From NCBI GenBank assembly GCA_027593235.1, contig JAQCIU010000012.1, positions 19,893-83,892 on the forward strand: a stretch of DNA of 64,000 bases, written 5' to 3'. Of this stretch, positions 42,580-52,276 are shown in pieces (the stretch's first letter is position 1; every line of letters starts with the position of its first letter). This DNA comes from Chloroflexota bacterium (lineage in GTDB: Bacteria > Chloroflexota > Dehalococcoidia > UBA2979). The translations under genes and the position numbers were made by a program. The notes below the pieces were generated by a model that did no database searches, was not told the origin of the DNA, and saw nothing but the letters and a program-made list of their open reading frames with translations.

Positions 42580-42708
42580 GGGCGAATTCTAGCAGCGGGT
42601 TGCGTCATGCCATCCAAGGGACACGGCGGGCCGCCACGCAATCCCGGTATGCTGCTGTCATCACATACGTGGCGAACCCAGCCAGCGGGTCGCTCGGGAG
42701 GTGCTGGG

Positions 42709-44418
42709 ATGGCAACGGCGACACACGAAACGCGAACTGGCGACACCGCGTCGCGATATGCCGAGCTGGAGGAGCGCATCCTCGATCGCGACCAGGTCGC
42801 GGCCAGCGAGGTCTTCTACGACCTCGTACGGGATGGCAGGCCGCTGAAGGAGCTGCTGCGCGAGACGGTGCGGGTCCACGCTCCGTACACGCACGCGCCG
42901 TACCACCAGCGGATCGACGACGGGGTCGTTCGCTTCGTCAACAACGATCACTGCCTGCTCAGCGCGCGCGCCAGCTTGCGGTTGCCCGACGTGTTGCCGG
43001 AGCGGCTGCGCTTCCTACCGATGGCGCAGACCATGTGGTACGTCCCGACCGGCCTCGATGCCTGGAGTCAGCTCCTCGGCAAGGCGCCCGGTCACTACGG
43101 ACGCCGGGTCTACGACGCATCGAAGTTCGACGAGGTGCCGCGTCCGACACGGCACTGGCCCGACGGCGACGCGATCGCCAGCGAAGGCACGCTCGACGAA
43201 CGCCTGAACCACTGGCTTACGCTCGTGCAGTACGGCCACGTCGAGCAGTCCTACGGGGTGTTCCGTGGATTGCTGGCCGAGCCGACCGACCGGCCACAGG
43301 TGCTGTCACAGCTCATGTTCGCGGGGCTGATCGACGTCCAGGACCGCATCTACATGAACCGCAGCTACACGACCGGCCACAAGTCCTACCGCGCCCGCGC
43401 CACGATCGAGCTGGCGCAGGCCATTGGCTGGGAAGACGCGCACGACGTGATCTACGCGGGCGTACCCGACATCGCCGTTGGACCGCGCTGGTACTCCGCC
43501 TACGAGATGGCCTGCGAGGTCGCACTGCGCCGTCTCGAAGAGGAGCCGCCTGCCTCGTCGCTGGCGCCGACGTTGATCACCGGTCGTGACGAGGAGCTGT
43601 TTGCCCAGACCGACGACCTCAGTTCAGTCGAACGGTCGATGCTGATGCACGCACTGCTCGAGGAGCCGGAGCCCGGCTACATCGAGGCGATCATCGCGCT
43701 GTTGCTGGCCGGTCGTTCCCCGCGCGCGATCCTCGACACGATTCAGATCGCGGCCGCCGAGGTCGTGCTGCGCTGTGGCGAGGGCCCGAGCTTCTCGATG
43801 CCGCAGCACGGCTACGAGTACACGAACACGCTGTCGTGGTTCTATGCGAACTTTGAGCACCGTCACAAGACGAAGCTGCTGTTCGTGGCTGGCTCCTTCA
43901 TCAACCAGTGCGGCGCCTGGGTGCGTCACTCCCCGGGCAACGGCAAGCCGGTGTTCACCGCCCCCGCGGCGGCTGGCGGGATGTCCCGGGACCAACTGCT
44001 GACACAACTCGATCGCGCGATGACGTCCCTGGAGCCGGACGAAGCGGCGTGCTGGGTGCAGGCGTACCTGGACGCCGGTCACGAGCGCCGTCCGTTGATT
44101 GCCACCCTGGCCCTGGGCGCGGCGAAGCAGGGAAACGATCCGCACAACCAGGAGATCGGGCTCTGCATGATCGAGGACTACGCGCGGACCTCGTCCCCGG
44201 ACCGCGATCGGCTGCTCCTCGCCTGTGCGAAGCACACCGCGGGGCACACGAAGTACGGCGATTCGCTGGAGTCCTACAACCGGTTCGCGCGTGAGTTCGA
44301 CTTGCCGCCCGCGACGGGCAAGGGCGGCGATCGCGATCCGCTCGAGGCCGTGCTCGAGGAGATCGAGCAGGTCCCGCTCGCGGACGAGGAAGCAACGCCG
44401 ACCGGTCTGCTGACGTAG
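42709..44418 (+). CDS. Uncharacterised all-helical protein with four His-containing internal repeats
   Basis: GGGAGG RBS before ATG 42709; 569 aa with host-like codon use; repeats centred on H81, H224, H367 and H479. Confidence 0.8.
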   Translation: MATATHETRTGDTASRYAELEERILDRDQVAASEVFYDLVRDGRPLKELLRETVRVHAPYTHAPYHQRIDDGVVRFVNNDHCLLSARASLRLPDVLPERLRFLPMAQTMWYVPTGLDAWSQLLGKAPGHYGRRVYDASKFDEVPRPTRHWPDGDAIASEGTLDERLNHWLTLVQYGHVEQSYGVFRGLLAEPTDRPQVLSQLMFAGLIDVQDRIYMNRSYTTGHKSYRARATIELAQAIGWEDAHDVIYAGVPDIAVGPRWYSAYEMACEVALRRLEEEPPASSLAPTLITGRDEELFAQTDDLSSVERSMLMHALLEEPEPGYIEAIIALLLAGRSPRAILDTIQIAAAEVVLRCGEGPSFSMPQHGYEYTNTLSWFYANFEHRHKTKLLFVAGSFINQCGAWVRHSPGNGKPVFTAPAAAGGMSRDQLLTQLDRAMTSLEPDEAACWVQAYLDAGHERRPLIATLALGAAKQGNDPHNQEIGLCMIEDYARTSSPDRDRLLLACAKHTAGHTKYGDSLESYNRFAREFDLPPATGKGGDRDPLEAVLEEIEQVPLADEEATPTGLLT

Positions 44419-44523
44419 GGCGGTCCGGCCTCGGGTTTGGATCATCGCACTCGCGGCGGTACGACGCCGTCCTGGCGTTGCGCGGATATGATCACCTGAG
44501 TGAGCGTTCTTACGTAACGTCCG

Positions 44524-44549
44524 GGAACCGAAGTGGGGCGACGCTCGTT
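44524..44549 (+). promoter_or_regulatory. ECF sigma-type promoter
   Basis: GGAAC-17 nt-CGTT, 45 nt upstream of the DUF4349 gene ATG. Confidence 0.55.
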
Positions 44550-44594
44550 TTGTCGCTATGGCCCGGCGCACGCGCGTCGGCAGGGAGGGCGACG

Positions 44595-46016
44595 ATGCGA
44601 AAGCAGCTCTGGGCATTCGTGGGCGTACTGGTGATGGCGATGCTGTTGCTGGTCGCCTGTGGCGGCAACGACAGCAGCGACGACACTGCACTAGCGTCGG
44701 GAGAGTACGGCGCCGTCACTGGGGGGGCCGTTTCCGAGTCCTTCTCGCGCGATGCGGACGGCAGTGCGCCAAATGGGGCGCCATCCGACGCGGTTACGAG
44801 CCCCGGTTCGGAGCCGGCACCGGGCAACACCGGCGATTCCGAAACGTTCGGCGGCAAGGGCGCGGATGGCGGGTTGACTCCGCTGGCGCTGCAGCAGGTT
44901 GGTGACGGGCGCGTCATCATCTTCACCTCCTCGATGGTCGTCGAGGTCGAAGACGTCCCGGGTGCCACGCAGCGGGCGCAGGCGGCGATTGCCGGCCTCG
45001 GCGGGTTGCTGTTCGGGCAGAACACCACCACCGAGCCGTACGCCTACACGACCCTCACCTTCAAAGTGCGTCCCGAGGACTTCCAGGAAGCGCTGCGGCG
45101 CCTCGAGGAGCTGGGCAAGCTGGAGAGCCAGCAGATCTCCACGGACGACGTGACCGAGCGGGTCGTGGATCTCCAGAGCCGCATCACCACCTCGGAGGCG
45201 TCGGTCGAGCGGCTGCGCGCCTTCCTCAGCAACGCCACCGACCTCGAGGGTGTCGCGCAGATCGAGGCGCAGCTCCTGATCCGCGAGACGGACCTCGAGG
45301 TGCTGCGTGGGCAGCTCCGCACGATCCAGGAGCAGGCCTCACTCGCCACGATCTACCTCACGCTGACCGAGCCACAGCCGGATGAGCCGGAGGCGAGCAT
45401 CGATCTCGTCCAGACGGCCTACCTCGATCACGACCGCGGCGCGCACTGCCCCGGCGACGACGAGCTGAAGGTCGACGAAGGCGAGGCGATGACCGTCTGC
45501 TTCTCGATCGAGAACACCGGCAACCTCGCGTTGACCGAGATCGAGATTCGCGACGTCGGTCTCGATCTCGATGAGGACGACTTCGTCGTGCTAGAAGGGT
45601 CGCTCGAGGTCCTCGAGCCTGGTGACACGCTGATGGGCTACTTCGAGACGGACGCCGAGTTGCGGCACTACGCCGATCCTCGGTTCTCGGCCGTCCCGGT
45701 TGACGAGGATGGCGACCCGGTCCGGGTCGGCATCGAGATCGATGGCGACCTGGTCTCCTTCGACATCGTCGAGGACACCTCGGTGCCATCATTCACTGAT
45801 GGGCTGTCGGGCAGCATCGACGCGGTGATCTCGCTCGGTCAGCTGGCGATCCTTGCTGTCGGCGTCGCGATTCCGTTCCTCTGGGTGCCGCTGCTGGTCG
45901 TCGCCCTCGTGTGGTTCATCCGTCGCCGGACGACCCCATCACGGACGCTGGCTTCGCCCGTTGCAACGACGGCCACGGCGGCCGCTCCGACCAACGACGT
46001 GGAGAGCGACAACTAG
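44595..46016 (+). CDS. DUF4349 domain lipoprotein with an additional Ig-like segment and C-terminal TM
   Basis: Lipobox LVAC; IIFTSSMVVEVED, LTFKVRPEDF, DVTERVVDLQSRI, LEVLRGQLR, SLATIYLTL; C-terminal hydrophobic hairpin. Confidence 0.85.
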   Translation: MRKQLWAFVGVLVMAMLLLVACGGNDSSDDTALASGEYGAVTGGAVSESFSRDADGSAPNGAPSDAVTSPGSEPAPGNTGDSETFGGKGADGGLTPLALQQVGDGRVIIFTSSMVVEVEDVPGATQRAQAAIAGLGGLLFGQNTTTEPYAYTTLTFKVRPEDFQEALRRLEELGKLESQQISTDDVTERVVDLQSRITTSEASVERLRAFLSNATDLEGVAQIEAQLLIRETDLEVLRGQLRTIQEQASLATIYLTLTEPQPDEPEASIDLVQTAYLDHDRGAHCPGDDELKVDEGEAMTVCFSIENTGNLALTEIEIRDVGLDLDEDDFVVLEGSLEVLEPGDTLMGYFETDAELRHYADPRFSAVPVDEDGDPVRVGIEIDGDLVSFDIVEDTSVPSFTDGLSGSIDAVISLGQLAILAVGVAIPFLWVPLLVVALVWFIRRRTTPSRTLASPVATTATAAAPTNDVESDN

Positions 46017-46028
46017 CCGCACCGACGC

Positions 46029-46064
46029 ACCGCGGGCCGGTCACGCCATTGGCCGGCCCGCGGT
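46029..46064. terminator. Long GC hairpin after the DUF4349 gene, abutting the next -10 box
   Basis: ACCGCGGGCCGG(TCA)...(TGG)CCGGCCCGCGGT 12-15 bp stem. Confidence 0.5.
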
Positions 46065-46075
46065 ACAGTCACCCG

Positions 46076-46861
46076 ATGACGACACCATCCTTCGAGGCCA
46101 GCGAGTGGATCGCGCAACCTCGCAACCTCAGCCCCAACGGTATCCATGACGACGATCGCGCCCGCGAGCTGGGCTTCTCCGGCGGCTTCGTCACCGGCGT
46201 GGTGCTCTACGAGCACATCGCCGCGGAGCTGATGAACCAGGGGCTGCCGTGGCTCGACGAGGGCCGCGTTTCACTCAGTTTCCGACGGCCCGTCTACCAC
46301 GACGAAGCCGTGACCTGCCGCGTCGATCCCGCGACGAACAGCTTCGAGATTCGCAGCGACGACGGCATGGGCCCGCGCGCGAGCGGCACCTTCGAGGTCG
46401 GCGGCGACGACGCGCCCTCGGTGCCGAGCGGCGCAGCCGCGCCATCGCCGGCTGGCGTGGCGCTGGGCGATCCGTCGCTGGTCGGCATGGTGATGCGAAT
46501 CGAGGAGCGCCTCGACCCGGCGCTGTTCGATCAGATGGCGGAAAACTCGCGATTCCCTCGGGAGCTGGGTGGACGGAAGCTGATCCCGATCGGCCAGTGG
46601 ATCAACCCGATCGATCTGATCTACGAGTACTTCGGGCGGTCCACCACCATCCACTTCGCCGGTCGAATCTGGCACCACTCGCCGCTGTTCGAGGACGAGT
46701 CGTTCACGACCACCGGCGTGATCACCGGCTTCTCCGAGCGGCGCGGCAACCAGATCGTCGACTTCAACGCGCTGGTCGCCGCCGGCGATGGCCGCCCGAT
46801 CGCGACGATCGAGCACAGCAGCGTGTACAAGCTCGCGCGCGAGCGGGTCGCCGAGGGCTAA
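46076..46861 (+). CDS. Double hotdog-fold (MaoC-like dehydratase) protein
   Basis: NGIHDDDRARELGFSGGFVTG hydratase motif, SFRRPVY, and a second hotdog half IHFAGRIWHHSPL...ERRGNQIV. Confidence 0.75.
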   Translation: MTTPSFEASEWIAQPRNLSPNGIHDDDRARELGFSGGFVTGVVLYEHIAAELMNQGLPWLDEGRVSLSFRRPVYHDEAVTCRVDPATNSFEIRSDDGMGPRASGTFEVGGDDAPSVPSGAAAPSPAGVALGDPSLVGMVMRIEERLDPALFDQMAENSRFPRELGGRKLIPIGQWINPIDLIYEYFGRSTTIHFAGRIWHHSPLFEDESFTTTGVITGFSERRGNQIVDFNALVAAGDGRPIATIEHSSVYKLARERVAEG

Positions 46862-46878
46862 CGCCGCGCGCGCCCTCG

Positions 46879-47265
46879 TTAGTCGAGCGGCTCGAGCCCG
46901 CGTGGTTGGCTGCGGGTCTGGGCGGCGCAGACGATGAACTCGAGGTCAGCGCCGGCATCGGCGTGGATCTCGTGGTGGATCGCCGCCGGGAAGAACAGGA
47001 AATCGCCCGGCCCGACGCGCTTCGTCCACGGCCCGCAGATCACCTCGCCGGTCCCGCTCAGGAAGTAGTAGACCTTCTCCACGTCGTCGTGGATGTGCCG
47101 CTCGTTCGCGCCGCCCGCGGGCAGGCGATTCCGCAGTACGAACTGGAGGCCGCTCTCAAACGGGAACGTCGTGGCATCAAAGATGCGGCGCACGTGAAGG
47201 TCGCCGCGTGACTGGGTTTCGTCGATCGACGATTCGGCGGTGACGATCAGGCGTTCCTCGGACAT
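46879..47265 (-). CDS. Cupin domain protein
   Basis: HIHDDVEKVYYFLSGTG and GDFLFFPAAIHH cupin motifs; AAGGAG RBS. Confidence 0.88.
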   Translation of the reverse strand: MSEERLIVTAESSIDETQSRGDLHVRRIFDATTFPFESGLQFVLRNRLPAGGANERHIHDDVEKVYYFLSGTGEVICGPWTKRVGPGDFLFFPAAIHHEIHADAGADLEFIVCAAQTRSQPRGLEPLD

Positions 47266-47333
47266 GGGGCTCCTTGCTCCAGGCTGTGCTCAGACGACGC
47301 TCACATAGACGTCGGGCGCGAGCGTACGCGGGG

Positions 47334-50300
47334 TTAGTTGGGTGGCGGTGGGCAGACGCGGGTCTCGCCGGTGCTGGCATCCAGGAATGCGCCATCCGCC
47401 TGCTCGAAGCCAGAGAAGCTACTGCCGTCCGGGCAGATCACTAGCGTCGGAATCTGGGCCGGCGTCATCGTCGCCCCGCCGGCCGGTGCGCTCGGCGCCG
47501 CCGTGGCGAGGACCGTCGCGGCCGCGGTTCTCGTCGGCGCGGCAGTCGAGGTGGGGGCGACACCACCCGCACCGCCGCTCGCGCCAGTCGCGGACGGTTC
47601 GTCCGCGTCACCCCCGCCGAGCAGCAAGAACGCGCCGAGGGCGATCGCCACCACCCCGGCGAGCGGCCAGACCCAGATCGGAACCCGCCGCCTCGGTGGC
47701 TGGCCCGCTGCGGACGCGCCCGACGTTGCGGCGGTGGCGAGTTCGCGGTCGACCGCCTCGAACGGGCTCGACGGCGAGCGCTCCGCTTCGGGATCGATGT
47801 AGTCGAGCACGCTCTCGGCGGGTGGCACCGGCGTCTTGCCGAGATCCGCCTCGCCACCGAGGTAGTTGAGGACGCTCTCCTCGGGCGGCGCCTGCTGCTC
47901 GCCGAGCGTGTCGAGTCGATCGAGGTCCGCGAGGCTGGCGTCGGGCTCGTCGTCGAGGCCGCTCTCGTGGTCGAGGATGCTCCCCTGTGAGCGTGCCTCC
48001 GCCTGGGCGACGACGGCGTCCCATTCCGGATCGGGCTCCTCGGGAATTTCGGTTTCGCCCTCGGACGCGTCGGCTGGCCCGATGACGGAGGCGAAGGGCG
48101 ATTCGTTGAGGAAGTCGAGGATGCTGGGATCGCGGCCGGCCGCTTCGGCCTGGCGAATCCACTCTTCCCAGGCGGCGTCGTCCTCGGGATTGTCGGTGAC
48201 CTCGTCATCCGCGTCGTCGGTCAGGCTGCGGCGACCGAGCACCGCGTGCGACTGGGCGACGATCGCGTCCCAGTCGTCCTCCCAGTCGTCGTCGGCGTCG
48301 CGGTCGAGGAACAGCGGTGAGATGCCGCTGATCAGCGTGCCGTTGGGGGAGACGTTGCGGGCGAAGGCGGCGTGGATGTTCTGCGGCAGGTCGGCGAGGT
48401 GGCGGGTCGGGAGATCCTCGGACCAGACGGCGAACGGCGGGCGGTCGCCGCCGAACACGACCAGCGGCTCCTCGCCGCCGCGCTGATGTTTGCCGATCAC
48501 GTCGGTGAAGATGCTGAGGTTGTCCGCGAGCTTCGAGGGCTTGCGGAAGTCAGGCATGTCGAGCCAGCGCATGTGCGCACCGTGGAGCGCCAGGAACGCC
48601 TCCGAGTTCATCAGATCGGCGACAACGGCGTCATAGACCGCGGTGGAAACAGGATTCCCGTCGAGGTCGGTGATCTCAAAGAGGTCGTAGTCGCCCGTGA
48701 TGCCCTTGCCGGTGTTGCCGTAGAGACCGGTGTCGACGACGACGCCGTTGTCGAATCGGATCTGCCCGTCCGCCTCGAGCTGTCGCATGTGTTCGCCGAT
48801 GCCGCCGTTGAACTCGTTCATGCGCTGGTTGAAGCGACCCTCGATCTTGGCGAAGAAGGCGGGGTCGAAGGACGCGCGTGAGGGGAGGACGGGTTCGAAG
48901 AAGCCAACGAGGCCCTGCGTGCCGAGTTCTGCGCCCAGCAGCACATCGATGTCGTTGATCGTCTTCGACTTAATCTCGACGCCCTTGGGCGGGTTGCCCA
49001 ACCGCCGCCACCTGAGACCAGCGATGTTCGATGGCCGTGTCCAGCCCAGTGTGCCGTTGGGGTGGCCGTCACGCGGTTTGCGAGCGATCCGCTGGGCGTC
49101 AATCATCGCCTCGCGCATCATTCCGACTTGCTCGGGCGAGAGGATGTCGCCGGTCTCCGCGTGGGCGAGGTTGTCGCCGCGGAAACGCGGTGCGCCGACG
49201 TTGCCGGTGGCGCGCGTCGGGCCTCCGGCGTCCCCGAGGTCTGCGGCGCTGCGCCCTGGTGATCCGGGATCGGTACTGCGAGGGCGAGGGCCGTAGCCCT
49301 CGTAGGCGGGCAGGCCGCGGGCGGATAGGAGCGGCGTATCGCCACCCGCGGGCGGGACGATCACCCGTTGCCGGGTGGGTGTCGCGAGGTGGTCGAGCTG
49401 GAACTTCATGCCGGCGCCGGTCATCGCGACCTCGGTGATGAGATCGAGGAGGGCGAGGGTGCGTTGGTCCCAGCCGACCTCCTGCCCCATCTCGTTGACC
49501 CCGAACAGCAGCGTGCGCACCTGCGCGACGAGGGTGGCGGCGGCGAAGAGCCGGTAGGCGCCGATCGTCGCGGCACCGATGCCGCGCAGCACCATCGCGC
49601 TGACCTCGGCGTCGGATCGCTCCTTGTTCGCGCGTTCGCGCGACAGCGCGTCGGTCCAGGGGATCGCGCCCAGTAGCTCCGGTGGCTGCTGCAGGTAATC
49701 GAGGTAGCCCTGGGCGACGGCCAGCCGCGCGCGCTCGGTCCACGCGTCGCGGTTGAGCGATCCGCTGGCGGCGACGACGTAGCTGAGTCGCTGCAGCGTG
49801 TCCGCCTCGAGCGCGTCGAGGGCTGCCTGGATCTCGTCCTTCTCGCCGCTCTCCGGGTACTGATCGAGCTCCGCGCGGGCGGCGGTGATGTTGACGAGCG
49901 TGGCGTTGAAGACCTCGTCCGCCTTCGCGATGTACTCGCCGGTCTGGAACAGGCCCATCGAGATCGGGGTGTCATAGAGGAGGGCATCGTCCTCCGCGAC
50001 CACACCGTCTGCGGACTCGAAGCGGACGGTGAGCGTCTTGCCGTCCTCGTAGTCGATCTCGCCGCGATCGAGGTTGCCGGTCGACCAGGAGAAGCCCAGC
50101 GCGCCGACCTCGCCGGCCCCCTCGCCGCCGCCGGAGACGGAGAGCGGGGTGGAGGTGAACACCCACTCGCCATCGATCGTGTTCGTCCAGGTGATATCAA
50201 GGTCGGCGGTGCCCTCGGAGGTGACGAACTCGATCTCGGTCGTGTTGCCGGGATCGGCCATCGTGTCGGGGACGTAGAGCTCGATGCGGAACGTCTGATC

Positions 50301-50366
50301 GGAGACCAGGTCGTCCAGCGGACGCCCGCTCAGATCGACGATGCGGATGCGGAAGCCCTCGGCCAT
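47334..50366 (-). CDS. Membrane-anchored protein with a class II (edema factor/ExoY-like) nucleotidyl cyclase domain
   Basis: GAGGAG RBS. Motifs R444-P-S-N, G457-x3-K461-G-x3-K466-S-K468-T, T-G-D559-Y-D561-L-F and H595-G; acidic repeat region; one TM (about 47619-47684) preceded by RRR; Cys-pair C-terminal tail. Confidence 0.75.
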   Translation of the reverse strand: MAEGFRIRIVDLSGRPLDDLVSDQTFRIELYVPDTMADPGNTTEIEFVTSEGTADLDITWTNTIDGEWVFTSTPLSVSGGGEGAGEVGALGFSWSTGNLDRGEIDYEDGKTLTVRFESADGVVAEDDALLYDTPISMGLFQTGEYIAKADEVFNATLVNITAARAELDQYPESGEKDEIQAALDALEADTLQRLSYVVAASGSLNRDAWTERARLAVAQGYLDYLQQPPELLGAIPWTDALSRERANKERSDAEVSAMVLRGIGAATIGAYRLFAAATLVAQVRTLLFGVNEMGQEVGWDQRTLALLDLITEVAMTGAGMKFQLDHLATPTRQRVIVPPAGGDTPLLSARGLPAYEGYGPRPRSTDPGSPGRSAADLGDAGGPTRATGNVGAPRFRGDNLAHAETGDILSPEQVGMMREAMIDAQRIARKPRDGHPNGTLGWTRPSNIAGLRWRRLGNPPKGVEIKSKTINDIDVLLGAELGTQGLVGFFEPVLPSRASFDPAFFAKIEGRFNQRMNEFNGGIGEHMRQLEADGQIRFDNGVVVDTGLYGNTGKGITGDYDLFEITDLDGNPVSTAVYDAVVADLMNSEAFLALHGAHMRWLDMPDFRKPSKLADNLSIFTDVIGKHQRGGEEPLVVFGGDRPPFAVWSEDLPTRHLADLPQNIHAAFARNVSPNGTLISGISPLFLDRDADDDWEDDWDAIVAQSHAVLGRRSLTDDADDEVTDNPEDDAAWEEWIRQAEAAGRDPSILDFLNESPFASVIGPADASEGETEIPEEPDPEWDAVVAQAEARSQGSILDHESGLDDEPDASLADLDRLDTLGEQQAPPEESVLNYLGGEADLGKTPVPPAESVLDYIDPEAERSPSSPFEAVDRELATAATSGASAAGQPPRRRVPIWVWPLAGVVAIALGAFLLLGGGDADEPSATGASGGAGGVAPTSTAAPTRTAAATVLATAAPSAPAGGATMTPAQIPTLVICPDGSSFSGFEQADGAFLDASTGETRVCPPPPN

Positions 50367-50435
50367 GGGGCGCTCCTCAAACTGGCGTTCCCGGCGGGAG
50401 CGTAGCCGATGGTGGCTCGCCTGTGGGCAGCCGCC

Positions 50436-51146
50436 CTACACGAGCAGCAGCGCTCCGAGGGCGATCACGGCGATGTAGAGCACCTGCTGGAACGCGGCGG
50501 CGGGGATGTGCCCGGCGAGCCGATGCCCGAGCCAGAGCGCCACGAGGCCGAACGGGAAGTACAGCGCGTAGGCCGTGGCGACGTCGCTAGTCCACAACCC
50601 GGAGGCCCCATGTCCGATCCAGACGACGATCGCCAGCGGCACGAAATACGCCTGGAGCGTCGCGCGAAACACGTCCGGCGGCCATCGACGCAGCGTCCCG
50701 AACACGACCACCGGAGGCGAGTTCGTGTTGTAGGCACCGCCGAGGACCCCGCTCACGAAGCCCAGTCCGTACGCCCAGCCGTCGTGGCGGGCCTCGAACA
50801 GCGGCGGTCCGACGAGCGCGTAGATGGCGTACGCGATCAGCAACACGCCGAGGCCGCGCTGGATCAATTCGGCCGGCGCCTGGGTCAGCAGCAGGATGCC
50901 GACCGGCACCCCGAGGACAGAGCTGACAATCAGCTGCACCGCGGCGCGCGGTTCCAACCGGCGCCAGTTGCGACGCAGCAGCAGCAACGTTGTGCCGACG
51001 ATCACGAAGGCGACCAGCGCCGTCGCCTCCTCGACACCGACGAGCAGCGTCAGCATCGGCATCGCCACCAACCCCGTGCCAAAGCCGAGCGTCCCGTGGA
51101 ACAGCGTGGCCAGGCAGAGGATCGCGACGACGAGGGCAAGCTCCAT
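50436..51146 (-). CDS. Sulfite exporter TauE/SafE family membrane protein
   Basis: HGTLGFGTGLVAMP, GFVSGVLGGAYNTNSPP, FRATLQAYF; about 8 TM. Confidence 0.88.
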   Translation of the reverse strand: MELALVVAILCLATLFHGTLGFGTGLVAMPMLTLLVGVEEATALVAFVIVGTTLLLLRRNWRRLEPRAAVQLIVSSVLGVPVGILLLTQAPAELIQRGLGVLLIAYAIYALVGPPLFEARHDGWAYGLGFVSGVLGGAYNTNSPPVVVFGTLRRWPPDVFRATLQAYFVPLAIVVWIGHGASGLWTSDVATAYALYFPFGLVALWLGHRLAGHIPAAAFQQVLYIAVIALGALLLV

Positions 51147-51199
51147 CGAGCGACGCTACGCGCCTCGCTCGGTAGCGGCATGCGCCAGCGCGGCTCGCG

Positions 51200-52276
51200 C
51201 TAGGTGAACGCGAAGTCGAGGCCCAACTCGCCCTCGATCGTGCGGAACCACTCGATCACCTCGCGGTGATACGGGATGCCCTCGACGCGGCGCACCGCCT
51301 CCTCCTCGGCCTCGAGCAGGCCGGGGTAGACGACGCGGCTGTGCCCGGGCGCCGGCTTCGTCTCGGCGAGGCCGCGCAGGAATGCGTCCATATTGGCCTT
51401 GAACTCGGGGACGTCGATGAAGGCGTCGATGCGGTACGCCAGCAGGTGGAAGCCGGGCACGCTGGCGATGAAACCGGGACCGATGCCACTGAGGCTGCTG
51501 CACATGATGTCGATCACGGCGCCGATGCCGTAGCCCTTGTGCGAGCCCTGTTCGCGCGTGCCACCCATCGGGAGCATGTAGCTCTCCTCGGGGATGTCGC
51601 TGCGCTCCATGATCGGCGTGCCGTCCGTGCGGGCGATCCAGCCAGGCTCCACCTGCGCGCCGACCCGCCGCGCGAGCGCCAGCTTGTTGTTGGCGATCTG
51701 GGTGGTGCCGATGTCGATCATGAACGGCGGCATCTCGCCGGCCGGCGCGGCCCAGGCGATCGGATTCGTCCCCAGCCGCGGCTCGGCACCCCAGGTCGGC
51801 AGTCCCACCACCTTGCCGCTGGAGGACATCGCGACGCCGATCATGTCGTGCGGCAGCGCGCGCATCGCGTGGTAGCCGGTGCCGCCCATGTGGCCGACGC
51901 CAGTGACACAGACTGCGCCCATTCCTAAGCGCGCAGCCTTCTCGATCGCGATGTCCATCGCCCGAGGCGCGACGTGCAGCCCCAGCGATCCACCGCCGTC
52001 GATCAGCGCGGTGGTCTCGGTCTCGCGCGTCGTCGTGATCTCGCCGGTCGGCTTGAGGGTGCCGTTGCGGTACCCGGCGACATAGGTGCGCAGCATGTTC
52101 GAGACGCCGTGCGTTTCCACGCCGCGCAGGTCGTTGAACAGCAGCACGTCGGCCGAGAGGGCGGCGTTGTCCGCGGACTGCCCCATCGCCGCGAAGATCG
52201 CCTCGGTGGCGGCGCGCATCTCCGCTTCCGGGACGACGACGCGATCGGCCTCGGGAACCTTGAACCGCTCGAGCAT
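51200..52276 (-). CDS. Ldh_2 family oxidoreductase (malate/L-lactate/sulfolactate dehydrogenase type 2)
   Basis: DLRGVETHG, IDGGGSLG, GHMG, LGTNPIAWAAP, GSHKGYG, VVYPG. Confidence 0.9.
   Translation of the reverse strand: MLERFKVPEADRVVVPEAEMRAATEAIFAAMGQSADNAALSADVLLFNDLRGVETHGVSNMLRTYVAGYRNGTLKPTGEITTTRETETTALIDGGGSLGLHVAPRAMDIAIEKAARLGMGAVCVTGVGHMGGTGYHAMRALPHDMIGVAMSSSGKVVGLPTWGAEPRLGTNPIAWAAPAGEMPPFMIDIGTTQIANNKLALARRVGAQVEPGWIARTDGTPIMERSDIPEESYMLPMGGTREQGSHKGYGIGAVIDIMCSSLSGIGPGFIASVPGFHLLAYRIDAFIDVPEFKANMDAFLRGLAETKPAPGHSRVVYPGLLEAEEEAVRRVEGIPYHREVIEWFRTIEGELGLDFAFT

Follow-up and report, generated by a model that had tools for sequence, protein, structure and literature searches.

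A class II nucleotidyl cyclase domain of toxin-family origin in an accessory Chloroflexota membrane protein predicted to face inward

We analysed a 64,000-nt stretch of a Chloroflexota genome (contig JAQCIU010000012.1 of assembly GCA_027593235.1, positions 19,893 to 83,892; hereafter the window) and concentrated on one gene at 47334..50366 of its reverse strand, which encodes a large protein with a central cyclase domain and a single predicted transmembrane helix. The gene runs from an ATG start to a TAA stop through an uninterrupted reading frame of 1010 codons for amino acids (aa), has a G+C content close to that of its surroundings, and lies between genes for a TauE protein (PF01925, E 3e-29) and a cupin (PF07883, E 6e-11). 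A model working from the letters of the window (the original prediction) had given this gene its own ribosome-binding site and a TACGCT box. Both are present, with GAGGAG 6 nt ahead of the ATG and TACGCT at 50399-50404 when read on the strand of the gene; the hexamer is weak evidence for a promoter, because a consensus scan of positions 46700-51300 returned no sigma-70-type promoter. The predicted order of segments, from a beta-rich N-terminus to a cap with two cysteines, also held throughout in the sequence and in AlphaFold models (Table 1).

Table 1. Segments of the cyclase gene and its upstream spacer, in positions of the window.
Feature	Residues	Position	Strand	Basis or content
Upstream spacer, 69 nt		50367..50435	(-)	GAGGAG ribosome-binding site and TACGCT hexamer
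Whole gene	1010 aa	47334..50366	(-)	ATG to TAA
N-terminal Ig-like beta-sandwich	1-131	49974..50366	(-)	AlphaFold model m1c235d51e979 (aa 1-345), mean predicted local distance difference test (pLDDT) 84.4
Long helical bundle, contains PT-TG-like segment	134-327	49386..49967	(-)	Same AlphaFold model (aa 1-345)
PT-TG-like segment	256-335	49362..49601	(-)	Conservation and hhalign
Gly/Pro-rich linker	336-439	49050..49361	(-)	Composition; length differs among homologues
Compact class II nucleotidyl cyclase domain (ExoY/CyaA/edema factor fold)	440-672	48351..49049	(-)	Profile and fold
Acidic, probably disordered linker	690-890	47697..48299	(-)	Composition
PPRRR and single transmembrane helix	890-894 and 897-919	47610..47699	(-)	Kyte-Doolittle 2.24; flank charges
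Predicted ectodomain: Ala/Thr/Pro stalk and two-Cys cap	920-1010	47337..47609	(-)	C978, C1005

The central domain was recognised through its relatives. In single-sequence searches with the whole protein, Pfam gave no family at E ≤1 and phmmer no PDB entry at E ≤10, NCBIfam returned two sub-threshold low-complexity matches only, and PADLOC gave no family at E ≤10. PF03497 (Anthrax_toxA) had no match in the window protein at E ≤1, and only 2 of 29 members of its clade (described below) came near, at E 0.08; distant relatives have partial PF03497 matches of 35.1 bits (P0026), 30.1 bits (P0072), and 27.1 bits (P0083) against a cutoff of 25. We then used a family profile made by aligning the window domain with 36 short relatives (37 sequences). 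In the PDB, the 14 best matches to this profile were without exception ExoY, MARTX ExoY-like proteins, CyaA or anthrax edema factor (EF), at E 6e-5 to 1e-2, and the remaining six were unrelated, at E 0.28-0.87. K461, D474, R511, R515, D559, and D561 are invariant in the 37-sequence alignment, and K466, K468, and H595 are nearly so. The alignment of profile to PDB sequences placed K461/K468 on K81/K88 of ExoY and the TGDYDLF motif (D559/D561) on TADYDLF of ExoY (D212/D214), with the Asp block aligning below threshold.

An AlphaFold model of residues 395-700 (pLDDT 86.7, predicted template-modelling score 0.82) gave a concordant picture. All 23 Foldseek matches at E ≤1e-3 were ExoY/CyaA/EF cyclases, at low TM-scores of 0.26-0.35, and VIA-align superimposed 173-210 residues of the model on solved class II cyclases with Z 8.6-12.3 and a root-mean-square deviation of 3.3-5.1, the next unrelated fold scoring Z 2.7. 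Thus, the family profile and the modelled fold confirm that the central domain has the ExoY/CyaA/EF (class II) cyclase fold with its catalytic residues intact, in line with the cyclase named in the original prediction; the domain is invisible to Pfam, NCBIfam, PADLOC, and single-sequence PDB searches. It may convert nucleoside triphosphates (NTPs) to cyclic nucleoside monophosphates (cNMPs). It is compact, with ~270 residues against an aligned range of ~340-380 in the solved toxins (~70-90 shorter), and its Lys-to-Asp spacing is 98 residues as compared with 131 in ExoY. Parts of the class II core are therefore missing, and these may include the activator-binding switch regions.

The gene is under selection to keep this enzyme. 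Between the window gene and the orthologue in a same-genus relative, the ratio of nonsynonymous to synonymous substitution rates (dN/dS) was 0.30 over the whole gene; by part, it was 0.098 for the cyclase, 0.20 for the PT-TG-like part, and 0.63 for the beta-sandwich. The cyclase domain is under strong purifying selection and is a maintained enzyme. A second, more divergent population is also represented among the sequencing-run contigs, where fragments together cover most of the gene.

An exhaustive HMMER search with residues 1-720 returned 475 cluster representatives at E ≤1e-3, nearly all of which match residues ~443-650, the cyclase itself. In a Pfam scan of 28 of the 150 carriers listed, 6/28 had WXG100-like N-termini, 4/28 had partial Anthrax_toxA matches, 17/28 had no Pfam family, and one (P0083) had a genuine PT-TG domain; several giant carriers add glutamine deamidase, RelA/SpoT, GH-E nuclease, deaminase or ADP-ribosyltransferase domains. 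Four proteins of 2.4-3.4 thousand residues (P0107, P0072, P0045, and P0070) string the cyclase together with other toxin domains in a MARTX-like multi-effector layout, and all but P0045 have a WXG100-like leader. Among the 151 cyclase cores long enough to be labelled, 44 lie at the C-terminus, 46 lie internally, 30 precede a transmembrane helix, and 31 come from short stand-alone proteins. As judged from these architectures, our results show that the cyclase module has a toxin-family origin and belongs to a large family of bacterial conflict-system toxin domains.

A FastTree phylogeny with a midpoint root and architecture labels that we assigned unites all 30 proteins with the helix downstream in a single clade of 47 tips (support 0.93); six other tips share this layout, with transmembrane scores that are somewhat lower. 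The order in this clade is beta-sandwich, PT-TG-like helical bundle, cyclase, one transmembrane helix, and a variable ectodomain. The original prediction had called the module domesticated, which fits the single clade; the direction of change is not rooted in this tree. The domain is carried by 10 of the 99 genomes of the taxonomic family, the window genome and nine others. Record titles label carriers of the domain as metagenome-assembled genomes (MAGs) of Dehalococcoidia (Chloroflexota) and Acidimicrobiia (Actinomycetota).

Of 156 related proteins, 30 have the beta-sandwich and 35 the PT-TG-like segment, and both accompany the cyclase as one module. The N-terminal module gave no Foldseek match at E ≤1e-3 and only generic Ig-like and helical matches (Z ≤9.8) in a wide VIA search, and neither program found a specific fold match for the helical bundle at residues 134-327. 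Within the bundle, the segment FGVNEMGQEVGWDQRTLALLDL (FGVNEMGQ...; aa 288-309, nt 49440-49505) had been predicted to be hydrophobic up to about 49512 and to resemble the pre-toxin TG motifs of polymorphic toxins. It spans 49440-49505 and is only moderately hydrophobic (Kyte-Doolittle ~1.4). Pfam PT-TG (PF14449) was not found in the window protein or, at E ≤1, in any of 29 clade members, the T of the TG motif is F in the window protein, and a whole-alignment hhalign comparison with P0083 aligned the cyclase alone and no PT-TG. Focused on the segment, hhalign gave a probability of 99% to P0064, whose own Pfam PT-TG match is sub-threshold (E 0.0028), and of 38% (P=3e-4, 27 columns on the TG core) to the genuine PT-TG domain of P0083 (E 2.5e-14), which lies directly upstream of the P0083 cyclase. 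The predicted resemblance is thus weakly supported, and a distant relation to PT-TG, short of membership, is plausible.

Downstream of the cyclase, the stretch at residues 690-880 is strongly acidic (55 Asp and Glu, net charge -46). It holds four S[IV]L[DN][FHY] motifs, at aa 748, 796, 831, and 852, two of which are encoded by a 63-nt tandem duplication (76% identity) at 47782-47906; their copy number differs among homologues, and the repeats could form a multivalent short linear motif. The transmembrane helix that follows is strong, with Kyte-Doolittle values of up to 2.24, and has three Lys/Arg residues on its N flank, none on its C flank, and an acidic C flank. The bias recurs across the clade: among the 30 members with a strong helix, the N flank is richer in Lys/Arg in 27, and the C flank is mostly acidic. 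C978 and C1005 are the only cysteines of the whole protein, both lie in the predicted ectodomain, and the two-Cys cap is conserved in P0002-P0005. Together, the charge bias of the N flank and the restriction of the Cys pair to the ectodomain predict an N-in/C-out orientation with a cytoplasmic cyclase. We therefore regard the window protein as a predicted single-pass N-in/C-out protein whose cyclase faces the cytoplasm of the producer, in agreement with the positive-inside argument of the original prediction. Hydropathy showed no N-terminal hydrophobic signal segment, and the predicted lack of a signal peptide held as well. Across the clade, 87 to 547 residues follow the helix, and these regions contain no Pfam family. 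In two distant relatives with the helix upstream of the cyclase (P0111 and P0141), six Lys/Arg residues follow the helix and none precede it, so that the cyclase is predicted to be inside there too.

Relatives of the window gene usually have a partner. A conserved protein with a core of ~215-290 aa, here called X, is encoded beside the cyclase at 9 of the 13 homologue loci. There is no X in the window, at the locus of the orthologue, or at L032, L034, and L035. When a profile of X was run against the 99 genomes of the family, it matched exactly the nine other cyclase carriers, none of the 89 non-carriers, and not the window genome, which is 89.7% complete. Where X lies follows from the architecture of the cyclase protein. 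In the five loci in which the cyclase is at the extreme C-terminus, X lies directly downstream; in L017, L020, L021, and L022 a transmembrane helix precedes the cyclase, with an N-in bias that places the module outside the cell by prediction, and the protein of L019 has no such helix. Where the module is N-terminal, as in the window protein (L015, L016, and L033), X lies upstream and overlaps the start of the cyclase gene, and in L016 and L033 a transmembrane helix lies downstream of the cyclase. In L018, the cyclase protein (P0034) carries X as a C-terminal fusion.

All 77 homologues of X that we found have the precomputed label PF28040.1, and X is thus already catalogued, as Pfam entry PF28040; we did not find this entry in the literature. 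An X profile had no matches in the PDB, NCBIfam matched none of nine members, a local Pfam copy matched neither of the two members tested, and the ESM Atlas offered no usable match, only a poor model. Among the X homologues, one carries a fused Imm35 domain (E 6e-6, narrowly below the cutoff) and another DUF4926, and TPR or zinc-ribbon domains are fused in others. According to the available text of Zhang et al. 2012 (PMC3482391), polyimmunity proteins combine immunity domains of unrelated kinds, and fusions of Imm35 with toxin domains sometimes occur. Judged by its genomic linkage and fusions, X is most likely the immunity or antitoxin protein of this cyclase family. The existence of a bacterial partner in the relatives also argues that the cyclase would be active in bacterial cells without a eukaryotic cofactor.

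At the window locus there is no immunity gene, as predicted, with X absent and both flanking genes ancestral. The flanking TauE and cupin genes had likewise been described as neither secretion nor immunity genes, and the locus contains none of either kind. Secretion and immunity genes kept consistently beside homologues were what the original prediction considered damaging to it; we found the candidate immunity gene X at 9 of 13 loci, and no secretion genes near any of the 12 homologue loci, so that half of this objection applies. EccB, WXG100, and WXG100_2 were not found in the window genome at its estimated completeness, and the protein has no WXG100-type domain. YxxxE is a signal motif of type VII secretion systems, and two such motifs occur in the acidic linker; export by this route was dropped as a candidate in view of the missing EccB and WXG100 families.

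The cyclase gene is an accessory of this site. In the same-genus relative, TauE and cupin likewise flank the orthologue, which is accompanied by a HIT gene, and two other genomes of the genus have TauE, in some cases HIT, and cupin in this order with no cyclase gene. Such cyclase-free sites indicate a single-gene accessory insertion between ancestral housekeeping neighbours. The HIT-family hydrolase (L014:8044-8508 (-), between the orthologue and cupin; L029:11255-11683, between TauE and cupin with no cyclase; not in the window) was considered as a partner and rejected, being ancestral to the site and present in a genome without the cyclase.

Several further features of the site and its neighbours were recorded. 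A contig of sequencing run X4 (depth 4.4, with 28 letters on its short side) joins the cupin end to TauE at 47266/50440 and skips 3,173 bp, exactly the cyclase gene and its spacers; this low-depth junction hints weakly that a related population may carry an empty-site allele. A 37-nt direct repeat with 70% identity and a spacing of 3,101 nt (47234-47270 / 50335-50371) covers the start-codon regions of the cupin and cyclase genes and could be due to chance or be a trace of an insertion boundary; beyond it, we found no convincing flanking repeats or target-site duplication at the locus. A DUF4349 protein (44478-46016 (+), E 4e-43) with a lipoprotein-like N-terminal signal and a C-terminal transmembrane helix keeps its synteny across the genus. 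Conserved open reading frames with no Pfam family lie nearby at 45911-46861 (+), of 316 aa, and 42640-44418 (+), of ~592 aa, and another, of 750 aa, lies between Ldh_2 and TauE in one member of the genus (L029:8112-10364 (-)).

Other homologue loci have sporadic neighbours of their own: in two Acidimicrobiia loci, a BTAD, class III cyclase, and NB-ARC protein (L032:2391-5888 (+)) and a STAND, TPR, and BTAD protein (L034:867-3959 (-)), and elsewhere a small cNMP-binding protein (L019:3256-3696 (-)). Two Acidimicrobiia-labelled loci share a lipoprotein, Y, that abuts the cyclase gene upstream (L034:4143-4877 (+) and L035:4414-4884 (+)); this protein combines a lipobox with a Thr/Pro stalk and a domain that contains Cys, and it shows no relationship to X.

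We tentatively favour, with less than even confidence, the reading that a toxin-family cyclase has been turned inward, has lost X, and is restrained and triggered in its own cell. The first ~890 residues (beta-sandwich, PT-TG-like bundle, cyclase, and acidic linker) would then lie in the cytoplasm of the producer, with a ~90-residue Ala/Thr/Pro stalk and a probable disulfide cap outside the cell. The module would derive from a toxin family that normally travels with X, which would have been lost in the lineage of the window gene, and its place upstream of the transmembrane helix would point it inward. The anchored enzyme might be kept silent until a trigger from the envelope, the ectodomain or a phage releases it to convert NTPs into cyclic NMPs and pyrophosphate in its own cell, and the outcome could be growth arrest, as in abortive defence, or a signal. 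A fuller evolutionary statement of this idea, in which a polymorphic-toxin/immunity pair turned a class II cyclase into an inward-facing single-pass 'receptor-toxin' that shed PF28040 and acts within its own cell in response to a cue from outside or from a phage, is in our view rather unlikely as it stands.

Several observations weigh against the favoured reading. The same three-part module is predicted to lie outside the cell in L017, L020, L021, and L022, with X directly downstream, and is therefore suited to export. A toxin-type cyclase that is intact and lies in the cytoplasm of a cell without X should be harmful unless restrained in some other way, and no restraining factor was identified: hhalign comparisons of X with the tail of the window protein (aa 656-1010), the cupin, the 316-aa neighbour, and lipoprotein Y gave probabilities of at most 0.4%. 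X could lie in the missing part of the 89.7% complete genome. The predicted topology follows hydropathy and charge rules only. Finally, no effector or cNMP-reader gene is linked to the locus, and PADLOC recognised no defence family there, CBASS/Pycsar-type cyclases included.

The main rival is an exported or contact-delivered cyclase toxin, antibacterial or directed against eukaryotes, that leaves the cell by an unrecognised route such as lysis or proteolysis. Its proponents could propose that the beta-sandwich binds the target, that the helical bundle carries the enzyme across the target membrane, and that the transmembrane helix and stalk anchor or present the protein. This rival remains serious because the same module is predicted to be extracellular, with X immediately downstream, in the sister architectures, and it draws further support from the occurrence of the domain in giant multi-toxin proteins and behind WXG100-like leaders, from the PT-TG-like pre-toxin segment, from the fusion of X to Imm35 in one homologue, from the patchy distribution (10 of 99 genomes) with carriers labelled as two phyla, and from the fast evolution of the beta-sandwich. 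Export is nonetheless hard to reconcile with a protein that has no signal peptide and places 890 residues before its sole transmembrane helix, with the N-in charge bias in 27/30 members, with cysteines confined to the C-terminal part, and with a cyclase that is not C-terminal; moreover, secretion genes were absent near the 12 loci, the type VII families were not found in the genome, and neither the window locus nor that of the orthologue has an immunity gene. On balance, we consider export possible, if unlikely, and the rival that deserves most attention.

A receptor-type second-messenger cyclase, whose ectodomain senses a cue and whose enzyme makes cAMP or cGMP at modest, non-toxic rates, appears improbable. 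The receptor-like single-pass layout, the range of ectodomain lengths across the clade, and the purifying selection on the enzyme are all as expected for signalling, and so are the cNMP-binding protein near L019 and the STAND/BTAD regulators beside L032 and L034, one of them with a class III cyclase domain. Such suggestive neighbours occur at only 3 of 12 loci, however, and the window ectodomain is tiny; the gene is accessory and patchy rather than a core signalling gene, and the need of the relatives for a dedicated partner would be unusual for a benign signalling enzyme.

More doubtful still is the reading as an orphaned toxin relic that serves no function today, or as a structural or decoy protein without catalysis. 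The loss of X, which every other carrier genome in the family has kept, is what would be expected of a remnant, but the full-length frame is open, all invariant residues of the family are present, near-identical copies occur in assemblies of two separate studies, and the cyclase dN/dS of 0.098 was obtained between two orthologues that both lack X. That the reading frame is a chimeric assembly artefact, a risk named in the original prediction, is already refuted as far as contigs can show and has a negligible likelihood, since single contigs of run X1 (10,341 nt, 0 differences) and run X3 (5,018 nt, 1 difference), from two different studies and both flagged as possible sources of the window DNA, span positions 46700-51200 with both gene junctions, full-length colinear homologues with 58-67% identity exist in four other records, and the orthologue sits in the same TauE-cupin context.

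If the fuller evolutionary statement, that of a 'receptor-toxin', is correct, the window protein would be the first class II cyclase directed at its own cell, and a large family of class II cyclase toxins that act on bacteria and have a cognate immunity family would be indicated. Class II cyclases have been described as toxins that stay inactive inside the bacterium and need calmodulin or actin of the eukaryotic host for activation (PMC9223806, PMC5150216, and PMC8595890, in the portions available), and they have been treated as belonging to Proteobacteria and Bacillus (PMC9223806, same portion). An excerpt of a preprint describes an unannotated, structurally similar cluster that is enriched in eukaryotic (algal) proteins. 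The available text of Zhang et al. 2012 (PMC3482391) makes no mention of adenylyl/adenylate cyclase, edema factor or ExoY, and the main texts of the Pandoomain PT-TG paper and of a toxin-discovery preprint, as far as available, mention neither cyclases nor anthrax; their supplements may list such domains. Outside supplements and subscription journals, which our search did not cover, we found no description of a bacterial-conflict branch of class II cyclases with an immunity family, or of an anchored, inward-facing form. The family described here suggests a much wider, compact branch of the class II fold in environmental genomes, with a dedicated bacterial partner and one clade that appears to aim at its own cytoplasm. 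Were the enzyme active without a eukaryotic cofactor, the understanding of how this fold is activated would change, cyclic-nucleotide overproduction or NTP depletion would join the weapons of interbacterial conflict or abortive defence, and the cyclase and X would form a tractable pair of enzyme and partner.

Compared to ExoY, CyaA, and anthrax edema factor (PF03497), the window enzyme has the same catalytic-core fold, with the phosphate-binding Lys pair and the metal-binding Asp pair conserved, and like ExoY it has a Lys (K466) two residues before the second Lys. It differs in having no Pfam match and a shorter domain, and in forming part of a membrane protein in which it is predicted to be exposed to the cytoplasm of the producer. 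Those toxins belong to pathogens, whereas the window family is found in environmental MAGs labelled Chloroflexota or Actinomycetota, and its relatives have the partner X.

As in polymorphic toxin systems (Zhang et al. 2012, PMC3482391, in the text available), the domain of the family recurs at the C-termini of large WXG100-led proteins together with other toxin domains and a PT-TG, and a small dedicated gene lies directly downstream in relatives with a C-terminal cyclase. In the window protein, by contrast, the toxin domain is central, ending at aa ~672 with 338 residues after it that include the transmembrane helix, and there is neither a recognisable trafficking domain (no Pfam domain and a generic Ig-like N-terminus) nor an adjacent immunity gene.

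A likeness to type II toxin-antitoxin and abortive-infection modules is seen in L015, L016, and L033, where X is upstream and overlaps the cyclase start, and in the accessory, patchy occurrence of the gene. An upstream partner that overlaps the start of the toxin gene is the order typical of toxin-antitoxin pairs. Unlike such modules, the window locus has no partner and no PADLOC match, and the 'toxin' would be a 1010-aa membrane protein. With receptor-type transmembrane class III cyclases, the window protein shares an ectodomain, a single transmembrane helix, and a cyclase predicted to be cytoplasmic; it departs from them in its class II fold, in its toxin-family ancestry, and in its reversed polarity, with the enzyme N-terminal to the helix.

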